NCBI GenBank assembly: GCA_040954595.2
Contig: CM082590.2
Coordinates: 5,952,001-6,016,000, forward strand
Length of the DNA stretch: 64,000 nt
Reading direction: 5' to 3'
From: Balanoglossus misakiensis
Lineage: Eukaryota > Animalia > Hemichordata
How positions within the stretch are numbered: position 1 is the first letter of the stretch; each line of letters starts with the position of its first letter. The translations under genes were made by a program, and so were the position numbers. Shown here in pieces: positions 4,169 through 57,202 of the stretch. The notes under the pieces are model-generated. The model saw only the letters and a list, made by a program, of their open reading frames with translations. It had not been told where the DNA came from and did not search any database.

Positions 4169-4481
4169 GACACGGAGCTGCTTCGCACCCATTGATTCAA
4201 AGTTTATAAATTGGAAAAAGTTTGCGGGGAGGCAACCCAGAACACTGATCAGCTTTCGACAATTGACTTGTTCTCCAACGCAAGAGGGGAAATTTTGATC
4301 GCCACCGGCTGTCCTGCTAAACATGGCGACTTCCGAATGAAGTGGTGTACTATTTAATAGAGATTACAAGCTGGTTGTAAACTTGTCTCAGGTGTACACA
4401 GGCTAATCTTACTTTAGTATTAAGTGCGTGTGAATTTATGGTCCAGGATTGTGACCAACGCGTAAAATCGGTTCTACAGCA

Positions 4482-9688: not shown

Positions 9689-9724
<36 letters not shown>

Positions 9725-26820: not shown

Positions 26821-26850
26821 ATGGCTTCCGGAGACTATAAAAATCCACAG
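26821..26850 (+). CDS. ANK-ROCO exon 1 (MASGDYKNPQ)
   Basis: Strong Kozak context AACCATGG and a perfect CAG|GTAAGT donor, phase 0, matching exon 2. The exon is short, so this call is less certain. Confidence 0.65.
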
Positions 26851-29800
26851 GTAAGTAAATGTTAACTGTAGTAACTGACATTTCACACCAAATGCAACGA
26901 TGTCTGACAGTGACGCGTACGACGGCTGTTTTTATGAGTGGTTTATATTTTGTTTGTTTTTGGGGGGACTGAGGCCTGTTGTTCAAAATTTCTCCCTTCA
27001 ACCCTATGCACGTAAATTTAACCAGACATTTTGGTCACTAAACATATGACGGTTATGTTTAGACTTGTGGCGCTAGTCGGTGCCTAATAGGTGTTTTTAT
27101 TTTTCAACGGGTCAGCTTGCCCTACACACGGAATATATAGAAACTTCTAGTGTTTGTGTGTATTGCTAGATAGTGTATTCATAACTATGTAAATACCCGG
27201 TTGACAAAAACGCCACATTGATCACGATGTTTTCCGTTCACTCCAACTGGCGAAATCCCAGTCTCTATTGTATGGAGCGATATTTGACGATACTGAAGTA
27301 AGACTCGGATTCGGTTTCGGATTCGGGTTGGAGAGACTGAAAGTAGTTTAGCATTTTCGGGCAACCATCGCGGTTAGGCATCTGCAGTACGAGTATGAAC
27401 ATAACTCTGTAAAAATATGAATATATTTGATCAAACTCTCTCGACATGTTATGTATGATATTTTTGGTACCAAAACACTGTTTTTTTTTCACATAGGAAA
27501 TTGTTAAATACATATTTTATTATCGAAAAACATACTTCAATGGTAGAAAGATAATATTTTGTAATTTTCGGTTTGAATAAACATTTTTTGGGTGAGAAAA
27601 TGTCATACATAATAAGTACAGATTAAATCAAATTTATTCGTGTTTTAGTAAAGTAATTTTCATTCTTGTACTGCAGATGCCTAACCGATGCCCGAAAATG
27701 CTAAACTACTTTCAGTCTCTCCAACCCGAATCTGAAACCGAATCCGAAACTGAATCCGAAACCGAATCCGAGTCTTACTTCAGTATCGTATGTGTCTATA
27801 TATGGGGTAGTCTCGGTTACCCAGACGCCTTTGCTTCTTCCGATGCTCTCCAGAAAAGGGTCTGGGGAAATGCTATTGAAAGCTTTGTAAAACAAAATGG
27901 CCGATGTCAGGATTTTGATCATCGCCTGATTGGCTGAGCTGTCAGTATGACCCGGGTCACTGACTCTCGACAATGTGTGATTATTTGTCGTATCTTCATA
28001 TCAAGAGACCGGTACTTGTTGGTTCATGCGAAAGGCAAAAGGCGTCCTCTGTTAGCATTGTTGGAGAAATTATATGAAATATCTTTGGTAGACGATTGTC
28101 GAAATTATTGCAGTGACCCGGGTCATACTGACAGCTCAGCCAATCAGGCGATGATCAAAATCCTGACATCGGCCATTTTGTTTTACAAAGCTTTCAATAG
28201 TATTTCCCCAGACCCTTTTCTGGAGAGCATCGGAAGAGCAAAGGCGTCTGGGTAACCGAGACTATATATGGGGCAGTCAGATTGACGCCATATCAAATGA
28301 TGATAACCTTTGACCCGAAATGAGTTCATTCAAGGTGACGCAGGTATGGTGTTGGTCATAAGGGGTCGTGGATAATCATTAATTCCCCATGAGCTGACTC
28401 TATCTTCTCCGTATCCTTTGCCGACAGATGACACGACAGGTTGATGATACATGTGTGCATACCCACGAGTAAGCTTTTTAAAATGAACCAATCGAACAGT
28501 TCATTACTGACTGTGGGTTGTTGATTCCATGTTCTGACCAACAGGACGACATCCCAAATCTGTAGACTATAACAATAGAGCATCTGGACAGTGAATTGAC
28601 CATTACCTTGTTCACGTTTCTTTTATGGAAATCATGCAAGCCCTATCAAACAGTCAAAAATGCTTCTTGGGAAGCACATCAGCGACCAGGTATACAAAGC
28701 TGTCACACGACCCACACACTACTACAGCTACACAATAACTTGCTCACACAGTTTGGACAAACATTCATATGGTGATACTTTCATTGCATTTGTTCACCGT
28801 TCTCTTGAGACCGTTGCCTTATCATGAGTCCATGGGCTCATCCGGGCATTTTCCAGTACATGTATCTATATTTTGGTGTAAGCCGTGTACGTTTATGTGT
28901 AATTAGAATACTTTACCATATCATCGATGCACATGGTTTACACAATGTGATGTGACAATTTAAGTATTATTTCTTGGTGTTTGTGATTTTGTTTGTTCAT
29001 ATTCAAAGATCAGTTCAAATTCTGAAGAATTTTATATACAACGCAATATTTAAAAAACAACAATTGTATGTTTCACTGAATGTTATAGGTTCTCATTAAA
29101 GCCGCTGAGAATGGTGATGTTGCAAGGATTCGGTCGTTGATAGCTGATGGATACGACGTCAATGCAAAGGGTGCATTTCTTGGCAGGGTAAGTATTTGCA
29201 CTGCCTCACTCAGCATTTCACACGTGCAACCCAGTCACACAGGTATCGAATCTGAAGCGGCAAACGATTTGACCTTGACTCACTGATGAACACAAACCTT
29301 TCCTGTATTTGATATACAAGCTTATATGCATTTGAAATAAAAAACATGTGTCAAAAATAAAACTTGTTTCATCCTTTGTTTCTCTTATAGCTATTTGAGG
29401 TTAGAAAGAGAAATTTGAAGCCGAAACGAATAAGAAAATAATGTTGGCTGTAACGTCCATGTATCCGTATATTGTGATCAGTAACAGTCTGTGGCGCAGT
29501 TGTTGACAAATCCAGATCGATGTTTGCAAATGTCATAGAAAATAAAAGTGTTAACAAATAATTGAAACCCCAAAAGCGACACAATAGAGATTAAAAATCC
29601 CGCGTCGTAAGTCAATCCGGAATTCAGGTGAATATGGTCATGGAAAAGAGTGCCGTTGATTGCCCTTATAAACAAAAAGTGCGGATTTCTTTAGTCTGTG
29701 GTGTTTGTATTACAAGTGTATTCTTCAGGCGTGATTTGAATCTTTGAGGTTGGTCAATTGTTGATTGATTGTAATATTTATTTCCTCTGGCTCTTCGATG

Positions 29801-32800
29801 GATATCTTTGCTGTTTAAATTACTTGAGTGAATAAACACACATGTTTTGAGATGAAAGTGTTACTGTACCTCAATGGACATAGAACAATGCCAGAGTAAG
29901 GACATAGTGCTTGTCTATGGGGAATACAGGGAGAATATCAGAGTCGTGACAAGGCCAGGCTGAAATGTTTCATTTGCGGACACCCGATGAATATGTGGAA
30001 TCTGTGTCATTGCAGGCTGGAGAGTTGCCATTTGGACGAAATCTTCATCTGTGGAGGAAGCTAGTGATTACATGTGCCCCATGCATTATGTGCCATTGTT
30101 AGCTTAGAGACCGTCTCAGATTGTCACAAAACTAGCTGGTTAAATCGGATGTAGAATTAGGCGGTGTCTTTACTATGGCTGATTCTTGGCTTTACTGTTC
30201 GGAAAGGGACCGTCCACCCGAGAACGGCCAAGACAGAGAACAGAACAGCCAAAATGATCACCATAGGTAAATACAACGCCTAACTCTACATCTGATTTCA
30301 ATCAGATTGGTCACATAAATTCAACAAAGTTCTTATGTTTATTAGAAGTGCGAATTCAACTTGTTTAGTGAATTTCACTTTCACACTTATTTGCGCGACC
30401 ACAATTTTCCTTTTATGTTTTTTGTTAAATTCAGTGAACCAGACATATGTGATTTCAGTTCCCTTCTATGGATACTACAAACGCTTTTTTAAAAAAAGAC
30501 AAATTCGAGAGAAATGTCCAGACTGGTTTACACAATTCTTTTTCTGATGTTTCCTAGCAACATTAAATAATTATAACATTGAAGTAACGTAAGTACCAAC
30601 GCTAGGTCCATAGCAGGCTATACCTAAATATTAACTTACATCAACAGAGAAACAGGGGATTGTGTGTGTCGGGTGTGATTGAAAATTTCAAAATGTCCCA
30701 TGCCAATGTTGGGTTCATAGCGGGCCAGACTTCAACTTACATCAACAGAGAAACACGAGGGATTGTATATGTCTGGTGTATCACGTCCGCCATGTTTATC
30801 TGTTAGAGTACTTGGTGTGATTGAAAATTTAAACATATCAATGTAATTTATTAAACGATATTAAGACCTGTTGCACCTATGAGTCTGCATAAACATGTAT
30901 AGTGCGCTACATTATATTAGAATTTTATAGTGTTACACTTGTTAGAAAAATCTATAGGACATGTTATAAATGTTCTCTGAAACAATAGAGTGTTTTGGTC
31001 TGAAACAACTATAGATGCTACACACATTTAACTCATAATATCAGTCAACACTTAAAGTTACAAATCGATTTCAGTGAAATTATAGCCATGTCACCTTACA
31101 AGTCCAACATTGGAACATAGCTTGTGTTTATTTTAATTCAAATGAATTTGTCAATTTCAGGCTGGAGCCACAGCATTGCATGCTGCAGCCAACAAAAATA
31201 AACTGGAAGCGGCACAAGTGTTGATCGACCATGGAGCTGACGTCAATGCTAAGGATGAGGTAAGTGGCTTTACATGTTCACTCACCAATAGCCCGAATGG
31301 CCAAAAAGGTGACTCTGTACTTATATTTTGTAGCGTTGACAACCTTCGGGATGTCAATCACGTAATAAATGTTACTGCAATAAACCGACACACATAATAG
31401 GATTATGAAGAATATGAAAGAGTTTGAGGGAGAGTTTTTGGACCGTGGCTATACCTGCGGCCAAGTTAAATTCTTATCTCTTTTGAGACCATCCAATTCA
31501 CTTTTGAATATCATACCACTATAAAGCAATATTTTATTATAAGGTCAAGTATTTCGAGAGGTTGGGATCAGGGTGTTCATATCGAAATTCATAATTCTAT
31601 TTTTCGATAAATAATCTACCAATAGTTAACTTTTTGACCGGAAAGTTAGGGACCTAACCATGAATTATTGCTACATGCACGATGACACATTTATTTTATA
31701 TTTAAACAAACTGTAGTGTAATAGCTGTCAGTAACAACGGCGAAGCGAAATAAAGCTTTGAGAATAAATAATTGTAAATTGTAGGGGTGCCATGTATCCT
31801 GCACAACAGGCCGGGGGGGGGGGGGTTCTCCTATAGGAATGTGTACGGGTATGTGCCACCCAGAAGCGTCACTTTTCAACGGAAAAATCCCCAAACTTGG
31901 GATGACTTTTCAACCGAAAATCTACAAAGTGGGATTCTTTCATAAACCGTCATCATGTAGTTACCGTTATGAAACTGACTCTAAAGAAACGCCAAACCTC
32001 GCCACCCGTCGACGCCGCGCACAGGCACACGAAGTGTGTCACAAGTGGTGTCGTTGTCTCCGATGCTCGATTCTTGTGGCTTCACCGCTCGTGGCGCACT
32101 TCGTGTGGCTAAGCCATCGTTGGACAGAGAGAGAGGTCTGGCTGGCGAGACTTTAAAAAGTTGTCTGGCTGAAGTCCACCATAATCATTTGAATGTCAAT
32201 AGTGGTTCTGCATATTTCTTACCTTTCATTCATGATTGCCATTCTTTGATTGGCTAATTCCAATGCTCTTTTAAGGGGTAATGAAACTGCTGTCTAGGCT
32301 TTTATAAAATTTAGATCATTGTCAGTTTAAGGGTATTGTACAGAGGGCATCTTCAAATGAAAACAACACACGCACGTATCATAAATCTTAAATAAAGAAT
32401 ACCTGTGGTGTTAATGTACTCTCAAAGGACACTGCCCTATCACCACATCATGCATTCATGTTCATTTCTTGGGGGACTGGGATGTATCCTACTATTAATT
32501 AATCCCCCCAAAAAAACACAAAAACAACAACAACAACAACAACAACAAAGTTTCGGCAAAACATGTTGTGCCATCTCAAAAATGAATGTTTCAGAATGTG
32601 TGTTACAGTGCATGCTTAATGAAACATTGCGTGTTCCATTTTACGCTTATAGTCAGGGATTTTCAGTGACACCTTTTTGTTGTATTCCCACAGGGTGGTC
32701 GGGTACCGTTACACTATGCAGCAGGGAATGGCGATGGTGACGTGGTGAGACTTCTACTGCAATCCAATGCCAGCATCGATGTGCAGACCAACGTAAGTTA

Positions 32801-35481
32801 CTGTAATCACACAAATTCTATTCTACACTCACACATCAGTTGACATGTTTTATTATCAATAACACACATTTTTGAACATAGGTAAATAAAAATAAATAAT
32901 TAACGTCTATCCCTCTGCCTTATTCCCAACAACCCAGACGTTACAATATAATATTACCAATGACAGCCTCTCTTGTTAATTATGGATTCTTAAAAAAATT
33001 AATATTTCAATGTTTTTTTTCTTTAAAAGCACAGTTTGTCATGATTTAAAAAGAGAAATTAATTTGTTTGTTTCGTTGAATGTGAGATCAAGATCAGCAG
33101 ATTTATATGTAAATATTAGTGTGTATCATAATATAGGACCAATAAACGAGAGCCCCTCTTACTGATAACAGCATGAAAGAAATCCTCTATTCCAGTAATG
33201 ACCAATAAATATATAGCCTGCAACAGCGCATTAAATTATACAAACTGGTTATAAAACTTCAAACGGAAGCTCTCGTCACGCTGCGCATGTGTGCATTGTT
33301 TGTTGGAAAAAAAATTGCCCACAAATCCCTGAAATTCTATTTTTAGAATTATTTTTTTGAATGAAGGAAGCCGCCCACTGTAGCGTAGACTGGGCATGAT
33401 AGCAACTGAACATCCTACAAGTCGTGGCAACTGCAGTGGGGATTGCGCTGGTATAGGAGGACGTGTATCATCCATGCAGAGCGCTCGACGCGACAACCAC
33501 TCAAGCTAGAGAAGCCAGCCTTGCTAAGACTCAAATCTGCGTTAACCCGGCCCTGCATTGCATTGAGCTTGGCACGTCGGTTAGATTCCGCTGATAAACC
33601 TTATCACACTGTTGTCCGATTCCAAGTATATTTAGTCAGTCACCTTGTTGTAGAGATGACTGCAACAGGTGGTACAGGCGCTTGAATCGCGCCATTGTTG
33701 ACACGAGTATATCAACTAAGCCCTATACATGTATAGTGTGACCTACGCCTAACTGTTTATCTGTTCACAAATACTCAATATAAGCCTATAAAAAGTTTCG
33801 CGATGTTGGCTAAACAGCCGTGGACAATTGCCATAACGCGGTTGGTCGATGTCTTGAAAAATCATTCTGTATTTTGCATAAAGGCAAGGAAAAATTTCAG
33901 GGGGATTAAACCTGACAGTTTATTTCTCTGTGTTTGTACAAAGACATGAAATCATCTAGTGTAGGCGTTTCCGGGTACAGTTTGTTTTTACCGAAAAGGG
34001 CGTATTATGCAAATGAAGGGGGGAGTTAATGAAAAACGTAGATTTTTGTAAAGCAAAACATGTTCCACATCTTCCGATGCACGATGAATGGAATTAAAGT
34101 ATGTGCAAATTTCTGAAAATCCAACCTTTTCAGAGTTTGGTTCAGTAGTTGTGGAAATGCAGCTGTTCCGCCGGAGGATATGCTAATTCCGCGCATTGCT
34201 GGCTGCTAGGAAGCCCTACAAGTTCACCAATAATATCGCAATGTTCCTGTCAGAACTTGGCTTGCCACGTATTGCTGTCACCATGCGTTATATTAAATAT
34301 ATTAAATTTTATATTAAATACTTTCCCACCACGTGTAGGTAATATTGAAATCACACCGTCCCCGAAGGACTGTGATGAAACATAATCTGTTTCCTGATGT
34401 TTGCCTGTCACTTGCCTCCTCCGATGTTATTTGTCAAAATCCCGAAACGAATTTTCTGCTTGGCGGCCGTGTATGAGTCTACATGAACATGCGGTCATAA
34501 CTCTGGCTTTGCTGGAGCATTTGCCTATTTCAGTTCATGCCGAGTGCTGAGTTCTGTGTTGGGTTGTGGCGTCTGTTTCTGTGCGTACATGAATGTGTGT
34601 TCCTAGCCCTGCGTACTGGTCTGTGAGTTCCCGTCGGTAGGCGACCGGTGGAGGCCGTGTAACGCAAGCTAACAATGGGGAAGTGGTCGACTTCTATTGG
34701 ACGTAACGCTAACGCTAACGCTAACGCTATTTACTACTGTATAATTAAACTAGTTTTAAAATAGTTGCCATGGCCACCCTTTAACGTTAGCAGATATTTA
34801 GTGGCTCTCTATCGGAATTTGTCTATTACACATAAACACCCATCCGTGAGCCACTCGATATGAAAATTTGGGTTACGCCGCCCTCACTATAAGCGGCAGT
34901 CCTACTGACAAAATGATGCTCGTGCTCGTACTATCACTATCGTAATGCCGTCTCTTGTCAGTCTCAGCCCCACGAGAGCTTAAAGTTTAACACAAGAAAA
35001 CCATGAAAATTGTCCCGACTGTCACATTTCGATACTGAAGTAAATTCCAACCAGAGGCGTGGTTTGCATACAGTAGATTTGTGAAGATTCCTCCGTTCAT
35101 AAAACGAGATGAAACAGTTTTCACATGTATAGAAATGATTTAACACATAGCATTTCCTTGTAGAAATAGCTACCGTGTGTTCCATCTGTTTGTTTAGTGT
35201 ATAAGAATATCATTTTCTGAGCAGTACAGTCGGTGGGTTAAAGCAGTGGTACTCTTGAAGTCTATCTAATATTCCACTTTGTTTAATAACCTCTTATAAT
35301 GTTCGATTTCGCGTATTTGAATTGACACCAAATATCAGTTCGGATTATCTCAAACTAGAGAGATTTGAGTGTGCACACAATGCCACTCGCGTAATAGTTA
35401 CCTGTGGTTGCATGGCGATCGCAGTCATGTCATATCTGTACATGCATCGCTGTAAACTTACAGTGGACAGTGATTGTTTGT

Positions 35482-35522
<41 letters not shown>

Positions 35523-35543
35523 GATGAAATGATGATGATGATT

Positions 35544-35575
<32 letters not shown>

Positions 35576-38500
35576 AAAAATTTTTGTTAAAACACAATGA
35601 AGCATTTCTTGCTGTTGTTTGTCGATGTTGTAAATAACTGTAAAAGAGATCGCCCAACGTTGTATGGTCTCCCAGCGTCACTCCTGAGTACAATAAAGAG
35701 AAGGGTGGAATCGAGGTGCCCTGCTCCAGTCTAAATCCTTCAAGGTCCTGTAAAAACACCCCATCAACGACCGATCGATTGAAATGTGCCATCATAGGCA
35801 TTGAATATTTTCGTAAAGGGATACTGAGATATTAGACTTTGACATTAGAAATGGCCACATCAAAAGAAACTGTTGTTCGGGAAGGCTAAAATCCTAAGAT
35901 TTATCTTACGGTCCAATACTATTATAGACAGATTAAGCCGCAGGACACTTTTCCCCATAGTGATGAAATATCCGGCATTTACACATAAGGCGAATTTATG
36001 TAGCAATATTCTAAACTACCAATCCGAAACAATATTGCTTCTCTGATGTAAATGTTGTTTTGCACATAAGCCATTGATCATCACAACTGTCATGGTGTCC
36101 CATTGAAAAGTTTATGACTAGTGATATGAAAGGTATTGTAACAATAAATAACAAAACCAACAGTGTTTTTTAAATTTAATTTGCATAATTACGTACATCT
36201 TCAAAGAAACCCGAAAAGTATCTGTTTTGCTGATTACGATACATAAAAAATCCACTTTCATTAACTAGTACTGCAGTGTTGATGTCTGATATGTCTTTGT
36301 ATTTTACAGGATGGTGACACACCTATACATCGGGCAGCAGAGTGGGGTCAGGAAGGAGCAGCACTGTTATTACTGAAAGCCAAATGCTCTGTCAACATAC
36401 AAAACAAGGTAAGTTAGAACCAGCCTCGGTGCAGAAGGTGATGTAAGCGTTATAGATTGAGTTTTTTTGGTGGCTTTACTTTGGGGACAAGTTTTCGTTT
36501 GAAGGTATTATGTGTGTTATAATGTGCGTGTGTTGTGCGTGTGGCGCAGAAACGTTTGATGATTAGAAAAAACAATTTATTGGGGTCGGATCGTATGTTC
36601 AATTTGCATTCTTCCCACCCGCACCCGTTGAAGTTATTTTGAAAAATATGCCTGAAATGTCTGATAACAAAGGGAAATGTTTTTATTTTGACGATATTGA
36701 CGAGGAAGTAATTTGAGAATCGCGTAAGTTTAGGGTGAAGCAGCAGCGGTTCATTGTTGTGATAAGTTTGCATCGCGAGCACTTTCTGTAAACGGTGAGG
36801 TAGATCCCTCTCGCGGTTTACACAGTGAAGCGTGGGGCTACCCGTCACGTTTGCTTTATTCTCCTGTCTATACAGTCGCTGGCCGAGAATTTCTGGGGAG
36901 AGTGGAAACATTACTAATTTCGTTTGGTGATTTCCTGTCATTTAGTGGAAACTGTGACCACAGTGGAACTGTCTGGGCAGTGTGGTCCTTAGCTGTAGTA
37001 TTAAGCTCAACTCCCTTTTCTCTCTTCTGACGAGCGATTTGATATGTTGCGGATTTTACCCGAAATTTGCTTGAAATATGGCGGTCCGGGGCGACTTTTT
37101 AATTTGCATTGTGGACACAACTGACTCTTCCTGTTTAAGTTTCGCACGTACGCAAGAATTTTGTCTCTTTCTGGAAATATTCACGTACATTCGCGAAATT
37201 CCAACGTTTATCACCCCGTTTTCCGTTGATATTGTCGGGTACATCAGGTGGATGGTCATTGGCCGTGAAAGTACATAAGATTATTCTGACTCCCCAACAT
37301 ACCGGCTGTCTGTGTGGAAATGACTTTTGTTTTGTATCTATTCAATAGCGTTGAAGTTGGAGACAATATAGCTTTAAACATCCAAACCACGTGTACAGTA
37401 TATACCAGCAGGGTTTTGTCATTTTATTACTGTGTTTTTTTTTCATAAATGGGTAATTCGGTAACTTTTGACACTTTAGAAGAAATTTGTGAAATGCTCC
37501 AAATATTTGTCGGTCGGGCCTATTTAATTTATTTTTCTATTGATCTAATGACGGTGTATAGAGTTAAGAGTGATAACATTTAGATTCTTGAACCGGAAAA
37601 CTGAATCCAAAATTGTGTCTAAAGCAAATTTCAATGTCGTGAGAACAGGAACCTTTAGATGTTGCATTATTGAATACTACTGAAGCTGTGGAATCGGTTA
37701 TCAATGGTTGAACAGTGTTATTCTAGGATTGCCTCATTATGCAAACTTTGTTAAAATTTCACAATGACTGACAATACTGCATGGTCACACCAAAATGGTG
37801 TCAATAGACTCAAAGCCTGGCGCTGGGTTAATTTTAAGGCACAATAACTGATGAACCGCATTCGCTTCTTTCACCTCATGTTCCCTTTTCAGTTAAAATT
37901 GTCAAAATTTGTTTCAAATGTGGAATATGAAACCTGTATTGAGTGTGTTGGACGAAATTTATCACGGATTCTGTTGGACATTGTTTCACTGTTGTTGTTT
38001 TTATCAGCCTCAATGTCACTTCGAGGAAATAGTATGCTGACATTGTTTGGAGTCATCAACATCCTATTCCAGGGACAAGACCATCCATGTTAAAGCTGAC
38101 ACCTCCATAACATGTGAACGAAACGAAATTCCTTCCTACTTTGATAACGACACAGATGTTAAACACAATATTGCTCATGTGACTTCCCTAATGGTAGAGG
38201 ACCCACTGCAGCTTAAGATTGGGCTCTCCAATCAAAGAATCACGGGTCCCAACCTTTCCACAGTGGTGGTGTCCGTGTTCTTGAGCCAGGAGATATCCTT
38301 CTAGTTGCTTCTCCCAACACAGGAGTAAAAGTGAAGGACTGCAGAGATTATGATTAGTAGTGTGTTATTGCGTTACTTGTGGCTGCCGTGTAGGTACGCT
38401 GACATTGTTGCTCTATAGTCAAGTGATATTAGATCTGGAAACACAACACTCGCCATATATATATCGTCACAGAGCCCTTCGGGTTCTTTCATTCTGCTAG

Positions 38501-41500
38501 AAATTTCGAACTTATCGGATTCAAAAAACTTATATTTGTTGTAGGTGTCGCAGACAGAGTAAAGCACATTGATTAAAAGACAATTTGCTGTAATAAGTAT
38601 CAAGGTCCAACTTGTACATTTTAAACACATCAACTGTTTCAATATTTTAGAGTACCGGTACTAGTAAATATTGCACAATAACAGAATATCATGAATTCTG
38701 CACATGACATATGATACAGACCTTAGTGATGTTTAAGAAGGATGCGATTTATTCTACAGCTGTAGTTTTCATGAGTAAAGCGATCGTGAAATTTAGTCGA
38801 ACATTTTTCTTCACGGGTCATGGATGTCTGACATGTTGTTCAATGACAGAGGGAATAGTTTACAATGTACCGAACTGAACTCACTAGGTGCAACATTTAC
38901 CGGTACTGCACATGGTGCACGGTGACCGTTTTAAGCCTAGCCAGTTTAAAAGTTTCTCATTCATATATGGATCACAATCGACATGTTTTAGGTATTCACT
39001 ATTCTCGAATGCTAGATCACAGGCAAAGTCCCTCTGTCACAGGGCATATGTACATTCATTTACGCCACCTACGATCCATGATTGTCAAATTATGTTTCTT
39101 CCGATCCTGGTTGCTTATATTGCATCTCCCTTTTGCCGTTGGTGGCGGCATTGAAGGATAAAAGACTATCCGCCAGCCGACAGTGAGACTTTACGTAAAC
39201 TGAAACTGAGGAAAGCACCGGATCACAGGGAATGTGTTTGCATTGCATCAACGATGAGGCGCAAATTTGAGTTTCTTCTGATTATGGCTACTTAGTACAA
39301 CACCCTTAATCGTTGGCAGCGCTATTTGAGGATAAAATGTTATCTGTAGCCTCTAGACATGTAGACTGAAAGCGAGGAAAGCATCAGATTGGACAGGGAC
39401 ATTGTTACCGATCGATAAGAAATATTTTTTATATTTCAGATAAAAGTAACGGAATTATCATTGAGTTGCCATCATTTCTTAAACACTTTGTCTAGAAGTT
39501 TGCTTTCAGGCCCATGTGACCACCGGAATTGACCGTGGATATCTGTAAATTTATTATTAGTTTCATTTAAAGAAGGTCATTTCCACCACTCTGCCAATAA
39601 CACTTATGTTCCATGTGTTCAATATTATTACAGAATTGTGCATTCAGGTTCTAGTCTTCATTTACCTAATCACATCGAAAATATCATCCAACCACATTTT
39701 CCAGGACCCGCAACAAATCCCGATCTAAATATCAGCTACTGGAAAGCCCAATACATTAACACAGATTCTGCATGTGGCCATTAAAACTCTGTGTCTTCAT
39801 TTTGACAGGATGGCAACACTCCTTTGCACAGAGCAACAAGAAAGGATCGTGTGAATATAGTGAGGTTACTGTTGGAATACAAGGCTGATGTCAACATACA
39901 AAACAAAGCAAGTAGTATTTTTGTAATCTTTATTTATCATTTGAATCAGCATGCTCTTGAGAGGTTTGTAACTTGTTCCAACTTTGTACGCAATGTCTGA
40001 TGCAAGTTTTTTTTATCTATCATTTGAATCAGCAAGCTCTTGCGAGATTTGTAACTTGTTCAAAGGTTTTTACAAAGTTTGATACACAATTTGAACAATT
40101 GCTTGAGAGCGATTGTATGAAGCTTGAATCAAAGATGCCCTTCACACAGTTTGTATGAAGCCTGAACTGTGATTAAAGCAAATATATATGTGAAATTTGT
40201 CTCAAGTTTTGATCATTTTGGGGAGGTCTGGAATACGTTCCACTCCTGGGTGTGGTTACTTTTCATCTCTCTTCTTGGTACATTTTTATTTCTTTTAAGT
40301 TTCTGTACTTTCACTTTTAATTTATCAGAGATTTCCCCCGTCCATACCCACAAACTCCTTATCGGTGAACAAAGCTAATGTGAAAGGATTGTTGGCAGTT
40401 TTAGAAATATCCAAGTAGGGTGCAAGTCCGGGACTTAATCATGTAAAATGTTACTATCGGCTAATGTACATTTTCAACACAACACCTGACGATGATTTAA
40501 TTTACTAAATAACACTTGAAGACAAAATGTATCTTGATAATTTGTTTTTTGAAAAAGATATATGCTTTAAATGCCGCCAACAAAACCATGACAAAGTGTG
40601 TCCCCTTTTAAACATACATTCAGGGTAGCACCCTTCTCATTGCATCACTTCAAGCTCCTAAAACAATGACAACTCATCCCAGTAATAAGCCTATAATAAA
40701 TTTCGCGATGTTGGCTAAACAGCCGTGGACACTTGCCATAACACGGTCGGTCGATGTCTTGAAAAATCATTCTGTATTTTGCATTGAGGCAAGGAAAAAT
40801 GTCAGGGGGATTAAACCTGACAGTTTATTTCTCTGTGTTTGTACGAAGACATGAAATCATCTAGTGTAGGCGTTTCCTGGTACAGTTTATTGTTACCATA
40901 AAGGGCGTATTACACAAATGGGCGTCCAGCGTAGATTTTTGGAAAGCAAAACATGTCCCGAATCTTCCGTTGCACGAGGAAAGTGGAATTAAATTTCTGA
41001 AAATCGAACTTTTTCGGAGTTGGATCTTCAGTAGCTGTGGAAATGCAGCTGTTCCACTGGGGGAGGGGGAATACTAATTCCCCTCATCCCCCCCCCCGGC
41101 AGAACAGCTGCGTTTCCACAGCTATGTCTTCAGTTGATAAGTCCAGATTGCTGTTGGGAAGCCCTACAAGTTCAACAGTACGATCACAATGTTCCTGTCA
41201 GAACTTGGTTCGCCTTTTGTCACGTGTTGCTGTGGTCATGTCTAATTTTATTTTAAATACTTTCCCACCACATGTTATCGAAGTTGATGACTGTGTAGGT
41301 AATGGTGAAAATCCCACTGTCACCGCGTTTCATGAGATATAATTTGTTTCCTGTGATATTTGTCAAAACCCTGAAACAAACTTTCTGTTTGGCAGCCATT
41401 AAAAGCCAATGCAAACACGACATTCAGATGTGTATGAGTCTACATGTACATACGGTCATAACTCTGGCTTCGCTGGAGCATTTGCTGCTTTCAGTTCATG

Positions 41501-44500
41501 CCGAGTGCTGAGTTCTGTGTTGGGTTGTGTCGTATGTTTGTGTGTACCGATGCATTAATTAGATGACTTTGGTTGCGCTAAAGGTTCAGAGCCAGCAGAT
41601 GCAGTTTTCAACACATTACACACTCGGTGCGTTGCATCCGTCATTGGAGCGTGCAAGAGTCCATCCAGACGGCTGAATGCTGTTCCCTCCACCCCTTGCA
41701 TGATATTTCTGGACCGCTTCTGCATCGCCTTTTGTCTCAAGTCGGCCATCGATTTGTCTATGGTATTTCCCCAGACCCTCTTTCTGGCTGAAGTCCAGCA
41801 TAATCATTAGAATGTCAATAGTGGTTCCGCATATTTTTTACCTTTGATTCATAATTGGCGTTCTTCTATTGGCTAATTCCAATGCTCTTATAAGGGGTAA
41901 TGAAACTGCTGTCTGGGCTTTTATAATATTTAGATCATTGTCAGTTAGAGGTATTGTACAGAGGGCGTCTTCAAATGAAAACTGCAAACGCGCGTATCAT
42001 AAATCTCAAGTAATAGGAAACCTGTGATGTTAATGTACCCAAAAGGACACTGCCCTATCACCACATAATGCATTCATGTCCATTACGTGGGGGACTGGGA
42101 TGTATCCTACTTTTAATTTATCCCCCTCCCCGCCCCCCAAAAGTTTCGGCAAAACATGTTGTACCATCTCAAAAAATGAATGTTTCAGAATGTGTGTAAC
42201 AGTGCATGCTTAATGAAACATTGCGTGTTCCATTATACACTTATAGTCAGGGATTTTCAGTGACACATTTTTGTTGTATTCCCATAGATTGGTAGGGCAC
42301 CCTTACACTGGGCAGCATTGGAAGGCCATGGTGACATTGTGAGACTTCTACTGCAATCCAATGCCAGCATCGATGTGCAGGATACTGTAAGTTAATGTAA
42401 TCACACAAATTCTATTCTATACTCACACATCAGTTGACACGTTTTTATTATATTTAAATCATTGTCAGTTTGAGGTATTGTACAGAGGGCATCTTCAAAT
42501 GAAAACAACACACGCGTGTATCATAAATCTCAAGTAGAAGAATACCTGTGATGTTAATGTACCCTCAAAGGACAGAGCCCTATCACCACATCATGCATTC
42601 ATGTCCATTACGTGGGGGACTGGGATGTATCCTACTATTAATTAACCCTCCCCCCCCCAAAAAAAAAAAAAAAAAAAAACTTTCGGCAAAACATGTTGTG
42701 CCATCTCACAAATGAATGTTTCAGAATGTGTGTAGCAGTGCATGCTTAAAGGTATACAGTCACCTCCAACTTACATACGCCCATATATGGCTGAAATGAC
42801 GTATTTGGGCGTTCTAAAGAACTTATGGTTGCGCTCTTTCTTTCGCGTGTGCCACCCACTGAAAATCTGTGATTGGCTAGATCTCAATTTGCCATTGATG
42901 ACATGAGTATATCGCGTAATCCCTATATAGTGTGACCTAGGCTATCAGTTCACGATTCAAACAATGCTCAATCCAAATTGAAGGCTTAAATAACCGTAGA
43001 AACTTGCCATGAGGTCGGCCTATGGCTTGATAAATTATTATGTATTTTGCATTTATTAGGATGGGTAAAATTTCAGGGGGATTAAACCGGGCAGTTTCTT
43101 TCTCTGTGTTTCTAAGAAGACATGAAATCATCTAGTGTAGGTGTTTCCGGGTACAGTTTGTTGTTACCGTAAAGGGCGTATTATACAAATGGGCGGAAGC
43201 TAGTGAAAAGCATAGATTTTTAAAAACATTCCACCTCTTCCGTTGCATGAGGAAAGTGGAATTAAACTTAGTGCAAATTTCTGAAAATAATAACTTTTTC
43301 GGAGATGGGTCTTCAGTTGATAAGTCTAGATTGCTGGCTGCTGGGAAGCCGTAAAATTCACCAGTGCGATCGCAATGTTCATGTCAGAACTTGGCTTGCC
43401 TTTTACCACGTGTTGTCAAAACCCTGAAATAAACTTTCTGTTTGGCAGCCATACTTAAAAGCCAATGCAAACTTGACATTCAGATGTGTATGAGTATACA
43501 TGTACATACGGTCATAAATCTGGCTTCGCTGGAGCATTTGCTGCTTTCAGTTCATGCCGAGTGCTGAGTTCTGTGTTGGGTTGTGTCGTATGTTTGTGTG
43601 TACCGATGCATTAATTACTTAGATGACTTTGGTTGGGCTAAAGGTTCAGAGCGTGCAGATGCAGTTTTCAACACATTCGGTGCGTTGCATCCGTCATTTG
43701 AGCGTGCAAGAGTCCATCGAGACGGTTGAACGCTGTTCCCTTCACCCCTTGCATGATATTTCTGGATATTTCTTGCCTTTGCCACGTGTTGCTGTGGTCA
43801 TGCGTACATTTTATTTCAAATACTTTCCCACCACATGTTGTCGAAATTTATGACTGTGTAGGTAATGTTGAAAATCACACTGTCCCCGTGTGTCATGAGA
43901 CATTATCTGTTTCCTGATGTTTGCCTGTCACTTGCCTCCTCCGATGTTATTTGTCAAAACCCTCAAACGAATTTCTGTTTGGCGGCCGTAAAACCAATGC
44001 AAACTTTACATTCAAATGTGTATGAGTATTCATGTACATACGGTCATCCCTTTGGCTTTGCTGGAGCAATTTCTTCGTTCAATTCATGCCGAGTGCTGAG
44101 TTCTGTGTTGGGTTGTGTTGTATGTGTCTGTGCGTAGGTAATGTGTGTTCCTAGCCCTGCGTACAAGTCTGTGTGTTCCCGGCGTTACATGGACGATGGA
44201 GTTAATTACACATTAACACCCATCTGAGCTTTTATCACAAAATGCACAATCGATATGAAAATGTTTGTTATGCCGCCCCACTATAAGGGCATTGCACCAT
44301 GGGTGCGACTTCGCTCGAGGATCAAAACGCCTCTAATGCGACAGTCCCACTGATGATATGATGCTTGTACCATGACGTTTGCTCACCGAGTCAAACTATC
44401 ACTTTCGTAATGTCGTCTCATATCAGTCCTTCTGACACCACCCTCTCTCGCACAAAACATGTACTGTCACCATTATACTAGTAGTTGAAACTGTACTGTC

Positions 44501-47215
44501 AGTGAAACTCGCTTAATTATTATCCATAGCAGTCATTTTTTTTCTTTTGCAGAGATTAGTGAGGCATTTTGGGAAATGTGTTGATCAAAGTAGACACACT
44601 CGCGCGCAATCTCAAAACCACGAGAACTCACCTTCAATTTTTAACACTAGAAAACCATAAAAATTGAACTGTCACATTCCGATACTCAAATAAATTCTAA
44701 CCAGAGGCATGTTTTGCAAATAGTAGATTTGTGAAGATTCTATTGTACATAAAACGTGATGAAGCAGTTTTAATCAAATCATAGCAATGGGCTTAAAATC
44801 TTTTCTCCACCTTACAGTACGAAAAGACGCCTATGGATTATGCAGACGACAGAAGAGTCAAATCCCTGCTGAAGGTAATATTTCTCATAACTACAAGTAA
44901 CTGTCATATTCAAAAGGAACACTATTACTTGTAATACAACCATCAATGAGACAGAGTAATTCATATCCAGAACAAAAACCGAAAGAAACAATTTGGAGAG
45001 TGGAGATTAGTTTTTACCCCTTTGTACGCTCTAATTTAAATTTCAAAGTGAAACCACTGCTGTGGCTATATATTTGTTTAATTTACATTAATTGGTTGTT
45101 CTAAAATACTGTACTCCTTACTTTTGGGTATGTAATAGGAACTTGTGGAATTGTTGACAATACCAACAATTTTGTTGTTCCTATCATGTAACTGTTACCA
45201 ATAATCATTGTTCTAATTCAGTGTTTCATCCACAGTTCATAATCACCGCACTTTGACATGTGCATAACAAACCAGAATTTAACTAATGATTTTTTTTTCT
45301 AATATAACATGGATTATACTATTCACTTGACATTTCCATTACATATTATAATACAAGATTTGTAACATGTGCAGCATATATAACTTTCTTATAATCTGTG
45401 TGACTAACACAACTGCGAATTGAGATAGGTGCAGAGTGGCCTCCCACAAATGTTAACCATTATTAAACACTACAAGATTAAAACTGATGAACGACTTTCA
45501 TTTTGATAAACTTGGAATACATTGCATATATCTAAATGAACTAATCTGTTATATGTATGATGACTAGGCTGTCGTAGCCAAATTTTGTCATTAATGCCAG
45601 TGTAGTGTTCCTTTGATATCACAGTTCATTTTGACAATATTTGGCAAGTCTATTCACAATGATTTCTGTGCTTTTTGTTGACATCAGGCCGAACAGAGGA
45701 AGAAGAAATTCAGTGTTTTGATGAGAGAACCAGGCATCACCCGAAATAGTAGCAGAGTTCATGTCTGTGGATTTGGTGGTGTTGGAAAGACAACCCTTGT
45801 GAAATCTTTGCAACGGGTAACAATAATTTTCATATCTGTACTTATATCTTTGTCAAACATTGTATGGTCACACTGTTTTCCACTTCGACTGTTTCATCGA
45901 TGTTTCAAGTTTGTTATTTATTTATTTATTGCAGTGATACTATGAAATTATTCCTTTATTCACTTTTTTCTGAATATTGTAATGTACAGCCTACATAAAC
46001 AGTTCACCAAACTATTGTCATTATTATCTATTCAACATTATCATGATGTCCAGGTGAAATAGTTTGCTTAAATGATACAGGTGGTGTTACTCGCCCATCA
46101 GAGTCACTGTCAACACAAACGCTTACTGCAGTTTTGTGTGTACCACTTTCATACAGGGCTTCTGGCAAGCGTATTTCACTCGACGAGCTGAAGAATACCC
46201 GCCTCTACCGGACAAGACTGGGTACACACCAACACCAGGTATTGATGTAAAAACTATCGACATACCAAAGGTTGGAGAATACATTGTCATGGATTTTGCT
46301 GGACAGTGTGAGTACTACGTGACACACAACATGTTCCTGAGAGCAGAAGATGCTGTGTTTATGCTTCTGTTTAAAATAACAGAAATGGGGAAAGATGACC
46401 CAAAACATTTGAAGAAGCCTATAGAGATGTTGGAACAAGCACTGAAAGAGGTGAGACATGACCCTTCACACACAAACACACACACACACACACACACACA
46501 AACACCGGAACGAAATAGAAACTGTAAAGTATGTCCAATTTAACCTACTACATGCATGTCCACATATGGAACTAGTCATTTGAGAACGGCCACACACAAA
46601 CAAACAAACACCAACACACACACACACCGGAATGAAATCTACTTTTGAACCTACTATGTCCAAATATAGAACTAGTCATTTGAGGAGGGGTTGGGAGGTG
46701 GGGGTGGGGTGGGTGGTCCACATATGCAATGCCTAACAGATACAGACAGTTATAATTTCTTGCATGTTTTTGTAAGCTCTGAACTTAGTATGGTTTATGT
46801 GTGGCATTACAGTGCCACTATTATGAAATATTCTGCCAATTGCACCCCCAAGACAATCTTAATGTAGTGGAAGCGAAGGTCACATGTGAATTTTCTTAAA
46901 TGACTGGACGGTAGTGTATAGAAATCAATCCATACCTGGAGTGACGATTCTGAAATCAATTAAACTATTTCGAGCGAAAACCCTCAACACATGTAAAATG
47001 TGCCACAACACTTAAATATTCCCACAAATCAATACCTGTGTTATATTTAAACTAGCCCATTAGCTATAAAATTATGTTTGCATTACACAAAACAATTAAT
47101 TAATTAATTAATTAATTAATTAATTAATTAATTATTAATTAATTAATTATTAACATTGATTGATTTATTGATTTATTGATTGATTAAATTATTGATTAAT
47201 TGATTGATTAAATTT

Positions 47216-47266
<51 letters not shown>

Positions 47267-48580
47267 CAATTGTGAAATTATATCATTGTGATAATTTTCA
47301 GACCAACATATGGGCCCAGTTCTTCAAAGGCATGATAAGCAGCATACTAAAGAGTGATGATGCTTCGTCTCGGAGTGAAGACACCAAACCAACTGTGATA
47401 TTGATCGCAAGTAGAGCTGATATGTTGGATGAATCTCAACAAGAGAGTGGTAAGTAGATTACTTTGATTGCAGTTACAACATGCATATACTGTTAAACAC
47501 ACTAGTACATGCACACGCACAATCTAGCATGTACATGTAAAACCAATATTAATTTGGACAAATCTGTCTCTGCATCCAAATCTTGATGGTATTTAAGTAG
47601 CAGTTCATTGTAAGGAGATGCACGATAGTGTTTTTTTTTTTTTACAAAAGATCTGACATAAATTACTTAAAATCTTTTAGCCAGAAGGGGCATTTCCCTC
47701 CTACTTTGAATACTAGTTAAATACCGACACGCAATTTTTTCTATTTCATAGGAATAGTGACATGCCCATAAGTTCACGCAGTTTACATGTTTACATTCTG
47801 CACGTACATCCTTAAATGGGTACTGATACTTAAATATCAGTACCCATATTTTTATTTCATGTTTTCACACAGTCTACGAGTTAACGTTTTGCATGTACAT
47901 CCGTAATTACCATAACCCATTTTTTATGTTTTCTAATATAGCCAAACGGGTTGTAGAAGAGGTACGGGAAGAATTGAAGAAGAAATTTGGCAATTATTTG
48001 AATATCGTGGATGAGACAGTTTTGTTAAATTGTCATGATTCTCAAAGTGAAGCAATGGGCAGACTACGTGTGATCTTACGTGGGTTCAAGGTGAGTTTAA
48101 CATAAATGCATAACTATTTATATTAACATTTTGATTTGAAAATCCGTCTAGTCAGAAAATGATAATACTACAACAAATGTTGTATGTATGTATGTATGTA
48201 TGTATGTATGTATGTATGTATGTATGTATGTATGTATGTATGTATGTATGTATGTATGTATGTGTGTGCATGTGTGCGTGTATGTATGTATGTATGTATG
48301 TATGTATGTATGTATGTATGTATGTATGTATGTATGTATGTATGTATGTATGTATGTATGTATGTATGTATGTATGTATGTATGTATGTGCATGTGTGTG
48401 TATGTATGTATGTATGTATGTATGTATGTATGTATGTATGTATGTATGTATGTATGTATGTATGTATGTATGTATGTATGTATGTGTGTGTGTGCATTTG
48501 TATGTATGTATGTATGTATGTATGTATGTATGTATGTATGTATGTATGTATGTATGTATGTATGTATGTATGTATGTATG

Positions 48581-48611
<31 letters not shown>

Positions 48612-48758
48612 TTGTATGTATGTATGTATGTATGTATGTATGTATGTATGTATGTATGTATGTATGTATGTATGTATGTATGTATGTATGTATGTATGTA
48701 TGTATGTATGTATGTATGTATGTATGTGTGTGTGTGCATGTGTGTGTATGTATGTATG

Positions 48759-48789
<31 letters not shown>

Positions 48790-49058
48790 TTGTATGTATG
48801 TATGTATGTATGTATGTATGTATGTATGTATGTATGTATGTATGTATGTATGTATGTATGTATGTATGTATGTATGTATGTATGTATGTGTGTGTGTGCA
48901 TGTGTGTGTATGTATGTATGTATGTATGTATGTATGTATGTATGTATGTATGTATGTATGTATGTATGTATGTATGTATGTATGTATGTATGTGTGTGTG
49001 CATGTGTGTGTATGTATGTATGTATGTATGTATGTATGTATGTATGTATGTATGTATG

Positions 49059-49092
<34 letters not shown>

Positions 49093-55009: not shown

Positions 55010-56443
55010 TTAACACGACCCCGGGCCTACTATACACCAATCAAGAAACATTTACACGTCTACAGGTTAATAAATGCGCCCAGAAGTTTTACTTTCAACT
55101 CGGTAATTTGAGTTTTCAATTTAATTTTATGTGCAGGCTGCAAGAGCAAGACTAAGTTAAGAAATCACTTATATATTCATGCAATTATGTTCTACTGCAA
55201 GTTTTGCGTAAATTTTCCAAGGAACTAGCCCCTTCCGTCGCTTGAAATATCATCAACACTGCACTCTGACCTAACCACTATCGACTGCTTTTGATATTTA
55301 CACCGCCATCTGAGCAGACTGGCCCGTCGCTATAACGACGGAACCGAGCTGAAAAACAAGCAACATGAAAAGACCTATGTTGACCCAAGGTTGAACCAGC
55401 ACTGACGCTAGTGCCCCGAACCAGATCTCTAACTCAAGTTGCTAGAGACCCAGAACGCTGAAGTTAGCTTTCCAAAGGCACCTGCGACAACACTTAGTCC
55501 AAGCTCAAGCAACCACAGACCACACCAAAAACCAGTCTAGTCTAGTCCTACAGTACATCATAACACACTTCCCTGGGCGGTAGCTAGTTAGGGCGGCCAG
55601 CGCGGCAGTCAACAACGTGACAGCAGGCAAAGGCTTAATTCATTCACGAATAATTCATCTGGTTCGTTTATACACCAATCTTGAACGCACTCGGCAAATG
55701 TCTGCGGTCGGACGGAACCACACTCTATACCGAAAAACAGCCAAAATTAGTTCACTCGAGCAAATGTGGCCTAGACATTGTCGCGCGCCAGATTGTCTCG
55801 TACTACTTCTACGCATGCTCAGGCAATGACATCCGGGAACGCTGGGTAGGAGGGCTCGTTCAATGTGGTAGTTTCGATCGCTTTGCGCGCCATTGCTATA
55901 TTCACACAAAACTATTCCATCTAGAAGAAGAGCCACTTAAAACATTTATGTAGAACCTCTTTGACCAATTTACTCAAAAGTGTTATCGGTGAAGCATTGT
56001 GGATTGTCATTCTGTAGTCGGTTAATGCATGTATAGTGAAGGGACGGTGGAGGCAGCTTGGATTGCACCATTATCTGGTGGGTTGCGCCGGATTCTGTGA
56101 TAGGGTAAGTGCGCGAGTCGAAGAGTTCCTGCCCAGCTACCATGTGGGCAGTGGTGAGGCTTATCCCTGGGGAGGCATGGCAGCTTACGTAAGGTCGCGT
56201 GTTGATGACATGACCCAAGGTCATTTATCATCCACCGAGAGCGCATGTGCAGCTACAGTGTACATACGGAGAAAGTACGGTGTTTTGGTGTGGGAGGCAC
56301 ATATAATTAGATATTTTACTACACTTCGTGAAAATTAACTCAGGAAAGTAAATATAACAGTTTGCCTTTGTATCAATTACGGTACTGTGACAGGAGTGTC
56401 TGGCATGCTCCGATAGAAATTATGGAATGTTTGGTTAAAGTAA

Positions 56444-57202
56444 GGCTGCATTCACAAACACCTCTGGAGGGGGGGGGGGCAGGAGAATTGAGGGGGGGGG
56501 ATTTGAAAAAATTGAGGGTATGTAAGGGGGGGATTTGAAATAATTTAGGGACTGAAAGGGGGGGACTTGAAAACTTTAACGACTAAATATTTATTTTGAG
56601 TCCACAAAAATGCAGTTTCGCGCCCTTTACACCCACCCCCTCCATTCATCAACACCTTTCAATCATTGACTGGTTTATCTAGTGTCCCAGGTCAGGGGAC
56701 TTGCCCCACCCCATGATAACTTTGAGCGGCGACGGTTAAATTTGTCCTCCCCAGCATACCGGTAGTTGAGTTAATTTGCTTTTGCCGGGTTCATTAAAAT
56801 TCAGCTTTGAGCTCTGTATTTTAGAAAATTTTCTTACGTGGGAGGGGGACACCCCCTCCCAAACCCATCCCCTTCAATTCTCAGTTTACAATGTCTCCCA
56901 ACACAGAATACAAATATATGTACTTAAAAAATAAAAACAATGTTCAGTTTTAATACCCACTGATGAGGGGAAACATCAGTTTCAAATTCTTTTCATGGGA
57001 GCGCTGTTTTTCTTTTTACAAGATAGATAGGCGATGTGTTTTGCTCTGTGAAAGAAAATGGGGGGGGGGATTTCAAAATTTTGGCAGTTCGGATGGGGGG
57101 GATTTGAAAATATTGGCAGTTCGGAAGGGGGCATGTGAAAATTAGCGGTAAAACAAATTGAATTCTCCCGCCCCCCCTCCAGAGGTGTTTGTGAATGCAG
57201 CC
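56444..57202. mobile_element. PIF/Harbinger-type MITE, TAA TSD, copy 1
   Basis: TAA|GGCTGCATTCACAAACACCTCTGGAGG...CCTCCAGAGGTGTTTGTGAATGCAGCC|TAA; the empty site AAAGTAACTGG is present in neighbouring satellite units. Confidence 0.85.

Follow-up and report, generated by a model that had tools for sequence, protein, structure and literature searches.

Two ankyrin exons in a 64,000-nt window of the Balanoglossus misakiensis genome (contig CM082590.2, positions 5,952,001 to 6,016,000, forward strand) differ more from each other than do the introns that flank them, which raises the question of what force has diversified the exons, and to what end. The initial annotation proposed a natural variable receptor whose ankyrin binding face is under diversifying selection. 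We consider it probable (roughly 0.6) that the two exons are multi-copy cassettes, one repeat per exon, in a kinase-less ANK-ROC-COR-death-domain (Roco) gene, likely homogenised by duplication and intron-borne gene conversion, and that their predicted face codons 1, 3, 8, 11, 12 and 31–33 have likely been diversified by positive selection, yielding a would-be intracellular non-self sensor repertoire.

Both cassette exons (exons 4 and 7) lie in one gene with a reading frame intact over 943 codons. Its ankyrin array uses one repeat per symmetric exon, with six 99-nt phase-0 exons. The gene model comprises the following exons, with coordinates counted within the window.

26821..26850 (+): exon 1, predicted start, 10 codons; ATG plus GT donor; the spliced model aligns with P0003 from residue 1
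29089..29187 (+): exon 2, 99 nt in phase 0, ankyrin-like repeat serving as N-cap; no Pfam match on its own
31161..31259 (+): exon 3, ankyrin repeat; Pfam Ank E 5.9e-10; an exon-only contig runs from its 3′ end into exon 4
32694..32792 (+): exon 4, copy 1 of the hypervariable-type ankyrin cassette; Pfam Ank E 8.5e-9; spliced exon 3–4 contig
36310..36408 (+): exon 5, older-type ankyrin repeat; Pfam Ank E 6e-7; 49–50/99 nt against exons 4 and 7
39809..39907 (+): exon 6, ankyrin repeat with GC donor, read directly; Pfam Ank E 3.2e-11
42288..42386 (+): exon 7, copy 2 of the hypervariable-type ankyrin cassette; Pfam Ank E 1.3e-9; open frame, canonical splice sites
44818..44874 (+): exon 8, C-cap that closes the ankyrin array; from translation and spliced-model alignment
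45688-45816, 46157-46450, 47302-47449 and 47942-48090 (+): exons 9–12, ROC GTPase; from translation, Pfam Roc and tblastn with P0004
49189-49371 and 49565-50812 (+): exons 13 and 14, COR domain and C-terminal predicted death domain; from Pfam and a structure model

The ROC domain retains intact P-loop and G3 motifs in the translation of exons 9–10 and is 60–64% identical to the ROC exons of P0004 (tblastn), while Pfam Roc reaches E 0.0015 on exon 10 alone, below the curated cut-off. A weak Pfam match to NB-ARC (E 0.0047) is at the level of the P-loop only; the switch is ROC-COR, without a NACHT or NB-ARC ATPase. COR follows ROC directly, with Pfam COR-B above the cut-off, and in a structure model of COR and the death domain (pLDDT 83) the top 13 Foldseek matches are all Roco/LRRK (Roco COR Z 15.5). 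Residues 280–400 form a predicted six-helix bundle that matches numerous death domains, that of MyD88 among them (Z 11.4). The top Atlas cluster is 98% Death, and Pfam Death stands at E 0.0026, under the cut-off. A sequence search of this region against solved structures gave no relevant match, the matches of a profile search were filled by ankyrins, and single-sequence fold prediction of P0006 reached pLDDT 37. The predicted 943-aa model begins in register with the first residue of P0003 and lacks an N-terminal Ser/Thr kinase. A putative role as variable receptor would fit this architecture, of which the initial annotation made no mention.

The nearest relatives are hemichordate proteins named 'DAPK1-like' (41–55% identity to the closest). 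These entries are database predictions with automatic names. Kinase-less 'DAPK1-like' predictions occur in Ptychodera, Glandiceps, Saccoglossus, Branchiostoma and echinoderms, and no kinase Pfam domain was found on 20 homologues. The hemichordate, amphioxus and echinoderm proteins share the ANK-ROC-COR-death architecture, and several carry near-identical repeats that vary at the same positions. In five of the nine homologues with close repeat pairs, including Glandiceps and amphioxus proteins, 50–67% of the differences fall on seven face positions; in the other four the face share is only 0.17–0.35, near the 0.28 of distant ankyrin pairs. To our knowledge, the face positions are the most variable ones in any ankyrin. 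DAPK1 itself shares ANK-ROC-COR-death over its C-terminal three quarters, but the present model has no kinase, is 25% identical to the DAPK-type P0013, and is multi-copy and variable where DAPK1 is conserved. No study of the evolution or function of the kinase-less proteins was found in the literature searched.

Exons 4 and 7 are both 99 nt, phase 0 and flanked by AG and GT. A recount returns the reported 19 differences in 99 nt, with the same nine amino-acid changes, the same two purely synonymous codons (3 and 5) and codons 18–31 identical. When mutational paths are averaged, the count becomes 4.5 synonymous and 14.5 non-synonymous changes (pS 0.18, pN 0.20). The exon-wide dN/dS is thus ~1.1, so that any signal of selection is site-specific. 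Seven codons carry two or three changes, against 0.55–0.9 expected at the intron rate. By alignment to solved ankyrins and DARPins the variable codons would face a ligand; the face and outer-helix position sets come from alignment to DARPins and general ankyrin geometry. Four of the nine changed residues (1, 11, 12 and 33) are classical DARPin positions, five with position 8, and 11 of the 19 differing nucleotides sit in seven face codons (1, 3, 8, 11, 12, 31 and 33), so change 'almost only' on the binding surface was too strong a description of this pair. Changes at positions 4, 14 and 17 are near-private to one cassette copy. The DARPin list first used holds for positions 1, 11, 12 and 33; position 8 is a fixed Leu in library-type modules, and positions 3 and 31, which vary there, had been omitted. 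The list of randomised positions is reportedly that of Binz et al. 2003.

The exon is more diverged than all directly aligned flank, as first claimed (19/99 versus 42/546, Fisher p=0.0011). Next to the exon, 5 mismatches were counted in the 113 nt upstream, as before; the 65 nt downstream hold 4 mismatches and a 1-nt gap, where about 3 mismatches had been estimated. The figure of about 95% intron identity applies to the ~150 nt beside the exon (~96%); identity is ~90% further out and 85–90% beyond. Four features were annotated in the introns.

32164..32693 (+): intron flank upstream of cassette copy 1, homologous to 41783-42287; mismatch 4.1% proximal and 9.6% distal (32/335)
33691..35121 (+): downstream intron sequence, in blocks whose older homologues lie in introns 6 and 7; blastn to 40685-41713 and 42891-44771, most blocks with 10–15% mismatch
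40685..42287 (+): downstream-type block, then the upstream flank of copy 2; vestige of an earlier tandem unit
42443..42749 (+): third copy of the upstream flank, exon-less and ending before the acceptor; mismatch to both other copies 7.5–8.9% distal, 4.3% proximal

Because identity rises from 85–90% to 96% toward the exon, gene conversion is the probable homogenising force. The introns hold no spare or inverted repeat exons, nhmmer over the 64 kb being significant only for the five coding exons.

Evidence for selection comes from two-sequence codon models and from per-site variant tables. Codons that are unchanged in the pair show 2 changes at 19.2 synonymous sites (10%, intron-like). When exon and flank are given the same age, a site class with omega>1, its value lying far above 1, is favoured (2dlnL 17.7–26.1, p 1.5e-4 to 2e-6), and it is still favoured over a model in which the exon is older and omega may not exceed 1 (2dlnL 8.0, p 0.018) and when multi-nucleotide mutation is allowed (2dlnL 6.0–11.9). 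Random-placement tests made alongside these models ignore framework constraint and were left out of the inference. The test weakens to p 0.047–0.10 (df 2) when codons 1, 32 and 33 are left out, and the significance of all these pair tests has to be read in the knowledge that the pair was chosen beforehand for its pattern. From the codon models, selection is likely the diversifying force.

Sister cassettes were surveyed in three contig runs, all from one sample, with variation read per site rather than per haplotype. In X1, 413 contigs match the 751-nt cassette, indicating that it is multi-copy. Summed contig depth, which we do not take as copy number, gives a hint of tens of copies (three contigs at 32329 add up to 1415, versus 21–28 for several long contigs). 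For exon 7 with 40-nt flanks, 25 of 27 X1 variant rows are exonic, and all four bases occur at the second position of codon 11. The 11 listed rows that exon 4 does not account for all fall on codons 3, 11, 12, 31 and 33, five classical DARPin positions, and on codon 8, a helix-1 position. All ten non-pair variant sites lie in the seven face codons (p 2e-8), and eight of them fall within the six codons of the classical DARPin set (p 9e-6). Overall, sister variants concentrate on codons 1, 3, 8, 11, 12 and 31–33, and are neither evenly spread nor on the convex face, either of which had been named in advance as contrary to selection on the binding face. Diversifying selection there is thus supported by the codon models and, independently of the pair, by the sister variants, against an exon-wide ratio close to one. 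The variant tables are biased, since summed depth is lower at variable codons and the 3% cut-off is laxer there. The exon 7 table missed a common R/K variant at codon 19, on the outer helix and at about half of the depth, as well as a flank site with three alleles, both seen in the 751-nt cassette table, of which 40 of 131 rows were taken in. A protein search with sister-cassette ORFs gave no match.

Because their cover is exon-only and they contain exon–exon joins, we read the X3 contigs as cDNA, their DNA label being a guess. Exon 4 is spliced, an exon 3–4 contig showing 0 differences over 83 nt. X3 also joins an exon-4-type module to another such module, to an exon-5-like module and to a C-cap; these contigs of other module order differ in sequence from the present gene and so point to sister genes or alleles. 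No X3 contig carries exon 7's own 5′ half, a blank that at this low depth is not evidence of silence.

Could the pattern arise without positive selection? An older paralogue might have donated the exon by conversion, or only the 5′ half together with the final two codons, with the introns homogenised later and the variable codons simply unconstrained. The patchiness of the differences (codons 1–17 and 32–33 differ, 18–31 do not) and the gradient of intron identity would suit such a mosaic history, the path-averaged pS lies above the intron rate, and the older-exon model is rejected at p 0.018 only. Under this account, nevertheless, the exon has to be ~4.5 times as old as the flanks (t 0.37 versus 0.08), yet the unchanged codons show differences at only 2 of their 19 synonymous sites; moreover, sister variants from outside the pair recur at those few codons, a single site showing as many as four bases. 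We regard this account as distinctly unlikely. Relaxed constraint or decay of redundant copies, coupled with the choice of a striking pair, is most improbable: exon 4 is off the ankyrin consensus at two residues (14 and 32) and intron 7 holds the exon-less cassette remnant, but relaxation cannot outrun the neutral rate, and a wholly neutral exon would show at least 19 differences with a probability of 0.0002–0.004. The 943-codon frame is also intact and exon 4 is spliced.

If face selection is real, the partner could still be non-microbial: a polymorphic self protein, in allorecognition, gamete recognition or intragenomic conflict, or else several endogenous partners. Fungal allorecognition receptors show the same signature in the portion of PMC13449251 available, but the death domain as output, and the expansion of the family in hemichordates and amphioxus, would by analogy fit immune repertoires, and this alternative seems quite unlikely. 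We give hardly any weight to programmed, templated or somatic diversification, in which an individual would rewrite or rearrange its own cassettes. One sample does show many variant cassettes, and transcripts differ in module order; moreover, parts of PMC3341825 propose such diversification as a hypothesis for Ectocarpus ROCOs. Against it, the window lacks spare or inverted donor exons, long contigs have ordinary single-copy-like depth, and germline paralogues and alleles suffice for everything seen.

The closest known systems are the LRR-ROCO genes of Ectocarpus (Zambounis et al. 2012, PMC3341825) and other brown algae (Teng et al. 2024, PMC11378527). From the sections of these papers available, they share with the present gene a Roco GTPase that carries a repeat sensor at its N terminus, exons of a single repeat each and cassette duplication, and their recombination, concave-face positive selection and proposed immune role parallel what we describe. 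The hemichordate gene differs in its ankyrins (99-nt exons) in place of LRRs, its death domain after COR and its animal host, and has no counterpart of their spare or inverted intronic repeat exons. A further brown-algal trait is alternative splicing of the repeat exons; the differing module orders in X3 are the corresponding observation here. Fungal NLRs with highly conserved ANK, WD or TPR repeats (Dyrka et al. 2014, PMC4986451; also PMC13449251, both in part) likewise have nearly identical ankyrin repeats in which some five positions, located on the inner helix and β-hairpin, are under positive selection, and combine concerted evolution with diversifying selection, as we read the cassettes here. 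Their switch is NACHT or NB-ARC rather than ROC-COR. In the present gene the repeats are separate exons in kilobase introns that join in the homogenisation, and only two non-adjacent repeats are close (24/33 aa, against 7–17/33 for other pairs), short of the threshold for fungal HIC NLRs (HNWD and ANK types), an internal repeat identity of 85% or more across 100 aa. No report of diversified ANK-Roco cassettes in animals was found, in a search that covered subscription literature thinly, and passages of PMC8195603, PMC11463336, PMC9334734 and PMC4104024 do not describe them.

In the proposed sensor, ligand binding to the array would switch the nucleotide state or dimerisation of ROC-COR, which would expose the death domain, and this in turn would nucleate the assembly of cell-death or NF-kB-type adaptors. 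The locus points to an overlooked family of diversified receptors in hemichordates and amphioxus, hidden in databases as 'DAPK1-like'. It would extend to animals the strategy of repeat shuffling and face selection known from brown-algal ROCOs and fungal NLRs, with a third switch–sensor pairing (ankyrin, ROC-COR and death domain), and would offer a testable case of Roco GTPases as immune switches, relevant to what DAPK1 and LRRK2 originally did. A bolder and, in our judgement, unlikely extension is that invertebrate deuterostomes run a natural DARPin library, in which dozens of intron-flanked cassettes are swapped fast among Roco genes and each animal, perhaps each cell lineage, has its own combinatorial sensors wired to death domains, an anticipatory system parallel to VLRs and plant NLRs. 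As in DARPins, the cassette varies at positions 1, 3, 11, 12, 31 and 33 on a fixed frame (PMC8229355, in part). Unlike them it is natural, and position 8, fixed in classical library modules, is among its most variable; the cassettes may thus serve as a natural guide to the ankyrin positions that evolution varies, position 8 in particular.

Ankyrin exons 4 and 7 of the Roco gene are each 99 nt long, in phase 0 and bounded by AG and GT, and they differ from one another more than their flanking introns do.

26821-50812, plus strand: Roco gene, 14 exons
32694-32792, plus strand: ankyrin exon 4
42288-42386, plus strand: ankyrin exon 7

Realignment reproduced 19 differences in 99 nt. All nine amino-acid changes of the initial annotation were confirmed, as were its two synonymous codons and the identity of codons 18-31. 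The claimed count of about 5 upstream mismatches also held (5 in 113 nt), while downstream there are 4 mismatches and one gap in 65 nt against about 3 claimed. The proposed intron identity of about 95% applies close to the exon and fails farther out, where 32 of 335 sites in the distal upstream flank are mismatched. Across all directly aligned flanks 42 of 546 sites differ (7.7%), so that exon divergence exceeds flank divergence (19/99 versus 42/546; Fisher p 0.0011), and most intron blocks beyond them are 10-15% divergent. Path-averaged counts give pS 0.18 and pN 0.20; the exon-wide ratio is thus about 1.1, and any selection signal must be site-specific.

Two or three changes fall in each of seven codons (0.55-0.9 such codons expected at the intron rate), and in unchanged codons 2 of 19.2 synonymous sites differ. 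When the introns set the neutral rate, the models favour a class holding about 30% of codons, with omega far above 1 (2dlnL 17.7-26.1). An older exon with omega capped at 1 fits more poorly than a model with an omega > 1 class added (2dlnL 8.0, p 0.018). Allowing double and triple mutations gives 2dlnL 6.0-11.9, and removing codons 1, 32 and 33 from these models gives borderline values of 4.6-6.1. All of these tests compare two sequences, from a pair chosen for its pattern. Diversifying selection is probably acting on the cassette.

We take the classical DARPin variable positions to be the six at 1, 3, 11, 12, 31 and 33. The initial annotation had counted position 8 among them, which was not borne out: in aligned library-type modules 3, 11, 12 and 31 vary and Leu is constant at 8. 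Position 8 sits on the inner ankyrin helix, where fungal ANK repeats carry their selected sites (PMC4986451).

The 751-nt exon-4 cassette is matched by 413 contigs of sequencing run X1 and 329 of run X2, from the same sample, and is therefore multi-copy; these contigs mix paralogues and alleles, which are not separable. The complete exon 7 variant table (40-nt flanks included, 3% share cut-off) holds 27 rows for X1, 25 exonic (19 of 99 sites) and 2 intronic (of 80 nt); depth drops at variable codons, which makes the cut-off laxer there. This table lacks a tri-allelic flank site and the common R/K variant at codon 19, both of which are present in the exon-4 cassette table. Eleven exonic rows carry a base absent from exon 4, all at codons 3, 8, 11, 12, 31 and 33. 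Variants not from exon 4 concentrate on seven face codons, the classical six plus 8 (p 2e-8), and 8 of their 10 sites lie within the classical six (p 9e-6). All four bases occur at codon 11 position 2 among X1 contigs. Among the 40 of 131 rows listed for the exon-4 cassette, codon 1 is also variable and changes at codons 4 and 14 are near-private to exon 4; in the exon 7 table the codon 17 change is near-private to exon 7.

The duplicated unit exceeds the exon and near flank. In intron 6 the upstream flank of exon 7 is immediately preceded by a downstream-type block; a third upstream-flank copy, exon-less and ending before the acceptor, lies in intron 7 (42443-42749). Identity between copies climbs toward the exon, from mostly 85-90% far out (one block, at 96%, is an exception) through about 90-92% in the distal flank to 96% adjoining it. 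From this layout we infer recurrent tandem duplication, loss and conversion. Somatic diversification of the cassettes is very improbable; no spare or inverted ankyrin exons were found within the 64-kb window. The most likely mechanism combines duplication and exchange with face-codon selection: through intron homology, cassettes would be copied and swapped both inside one Roco gene and from one Roco gene to another, which would keep frame and flanks alike, while selection would maintain diversity at face codons.

The third run, X3, has depth over exon only and contains exon-exon joins, and is presumably cDNA, although provisionally labelled DNA. In one X3 contig exons 3 and 4 are spliced together, with 0 differences across 83 nt. 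Others join an exon-4-type module to a second such module, an exon-5-like module or a C-cap; all differ in sequence from the window's gene, so transcription extends to sister genes or alleles whose modules are ordered differently. Among X3 contigs, where depth is low, none was seen with the sequence proper to exon 7. Exon 6 closes with a non-canonical GC donor (39908-39913), and skipping of that repeat could occur at this weak site.

The open frame runs to 943 codons. A short first exon is followed by an N-cap, then by five ankyrin exons (Pfam Ank E 6e-7 to 3e-11) and a C-cap; after these come a ROC GTPase, whose P-loop and G3 motifs are intact, the COR domain and, at the C-terminus, a helical domain. 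Animals commonly have one ankyrin per 99-nt exon, which is not unusual in itself. The exon 14 structure model (pLDDT 83) matches Roco/LRRK COR domains (13 of 13 Foldseek hits at E<=0.001; Z 15.5). Its residues 280-400 resemble death domains, with MyD88 at Z 11.4 (rmsd 2.1, 96 aligned), a score not by itself decisive for a helical bundle; many death domains match over this shared range, Pfam Death gives E 0.0026, and the top Atlas cluster is 98% Death. We therefore describe the C-terminal domain as a predicted death domain, to which ROC-COR would pass a binding signal. Overall, we put a non-self sensor role for the gene at roughly 0.6.

The gene is a Roco; a DAPK1 orthologue was rejected, no kinase domain being found within the 943-codon model. 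Brown-algal LRR-ROCOs (PMC3341825, PMC11378527) and fungal ANK-NLRs (PMC4986451, PMC13449251) share a similar working principle, although the Balanoglossus gene is a member of neither. Trichoplax is known to have Roco proteins that combine death domains with repeats (PMC4104024). Our literature search turned up no description of animal Rocos with diversified ankyrin cassettes.

A protein search returned 13 of 13 hemichordate matches, mostly named 'DAPK1-like' (best 53-58%), and 15 further named relatives come from hemichordates (3), echinoderms (5), amphioxus (6) and bowfin (1). Of 162 related proteins scanned, 40 have ankyrin repeats detected by the search pattern and 9 have close repeat pairs. 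In five of the nine the seven face positions hold 50-67% of differences; in the other four the share is 0.17-0.35, close to that of distant pairs (0.28). Position 8 differs in 31 of 36 repeat pairs of a Glandiceps protein, and amphioxus P0040 and P0044 show a similar pattern; such pairs are non-independent, and protein data alone do not tell selection from tolerance. The Roco relatives P0007 (Glandiceps), P0040 and P0044 carry near-identical repeats variable at the same face positions, with two repeat types alternating in P0007. The bowfin relative P0069, named DAPK1, is a 948-aa ankyrin-bearing protein, which suggests that some fishes may retain the kinase-less family.

Other features of the window are as follows.

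1906-24710: palindromic MITE-like element, 350-480 bp, in roughly ten copies or more, none of them within introns of the Roco gene
~4455-20900, plus strand: upstream gene with a His-rich loop, resembling, and from its motifs presumably belonging to, the ZIP/LIV-1 zinc transporters
27287-28264, intron 1: two inverted-repeat pairs (38 bp at 100%; 171 bp at 95%)
48177-49093, intron 12: TATG microsatellite, ~900 bp
56117-59502: 1.4-kb tandem duplication at 99.5% identity, then an array of ~180-bp units
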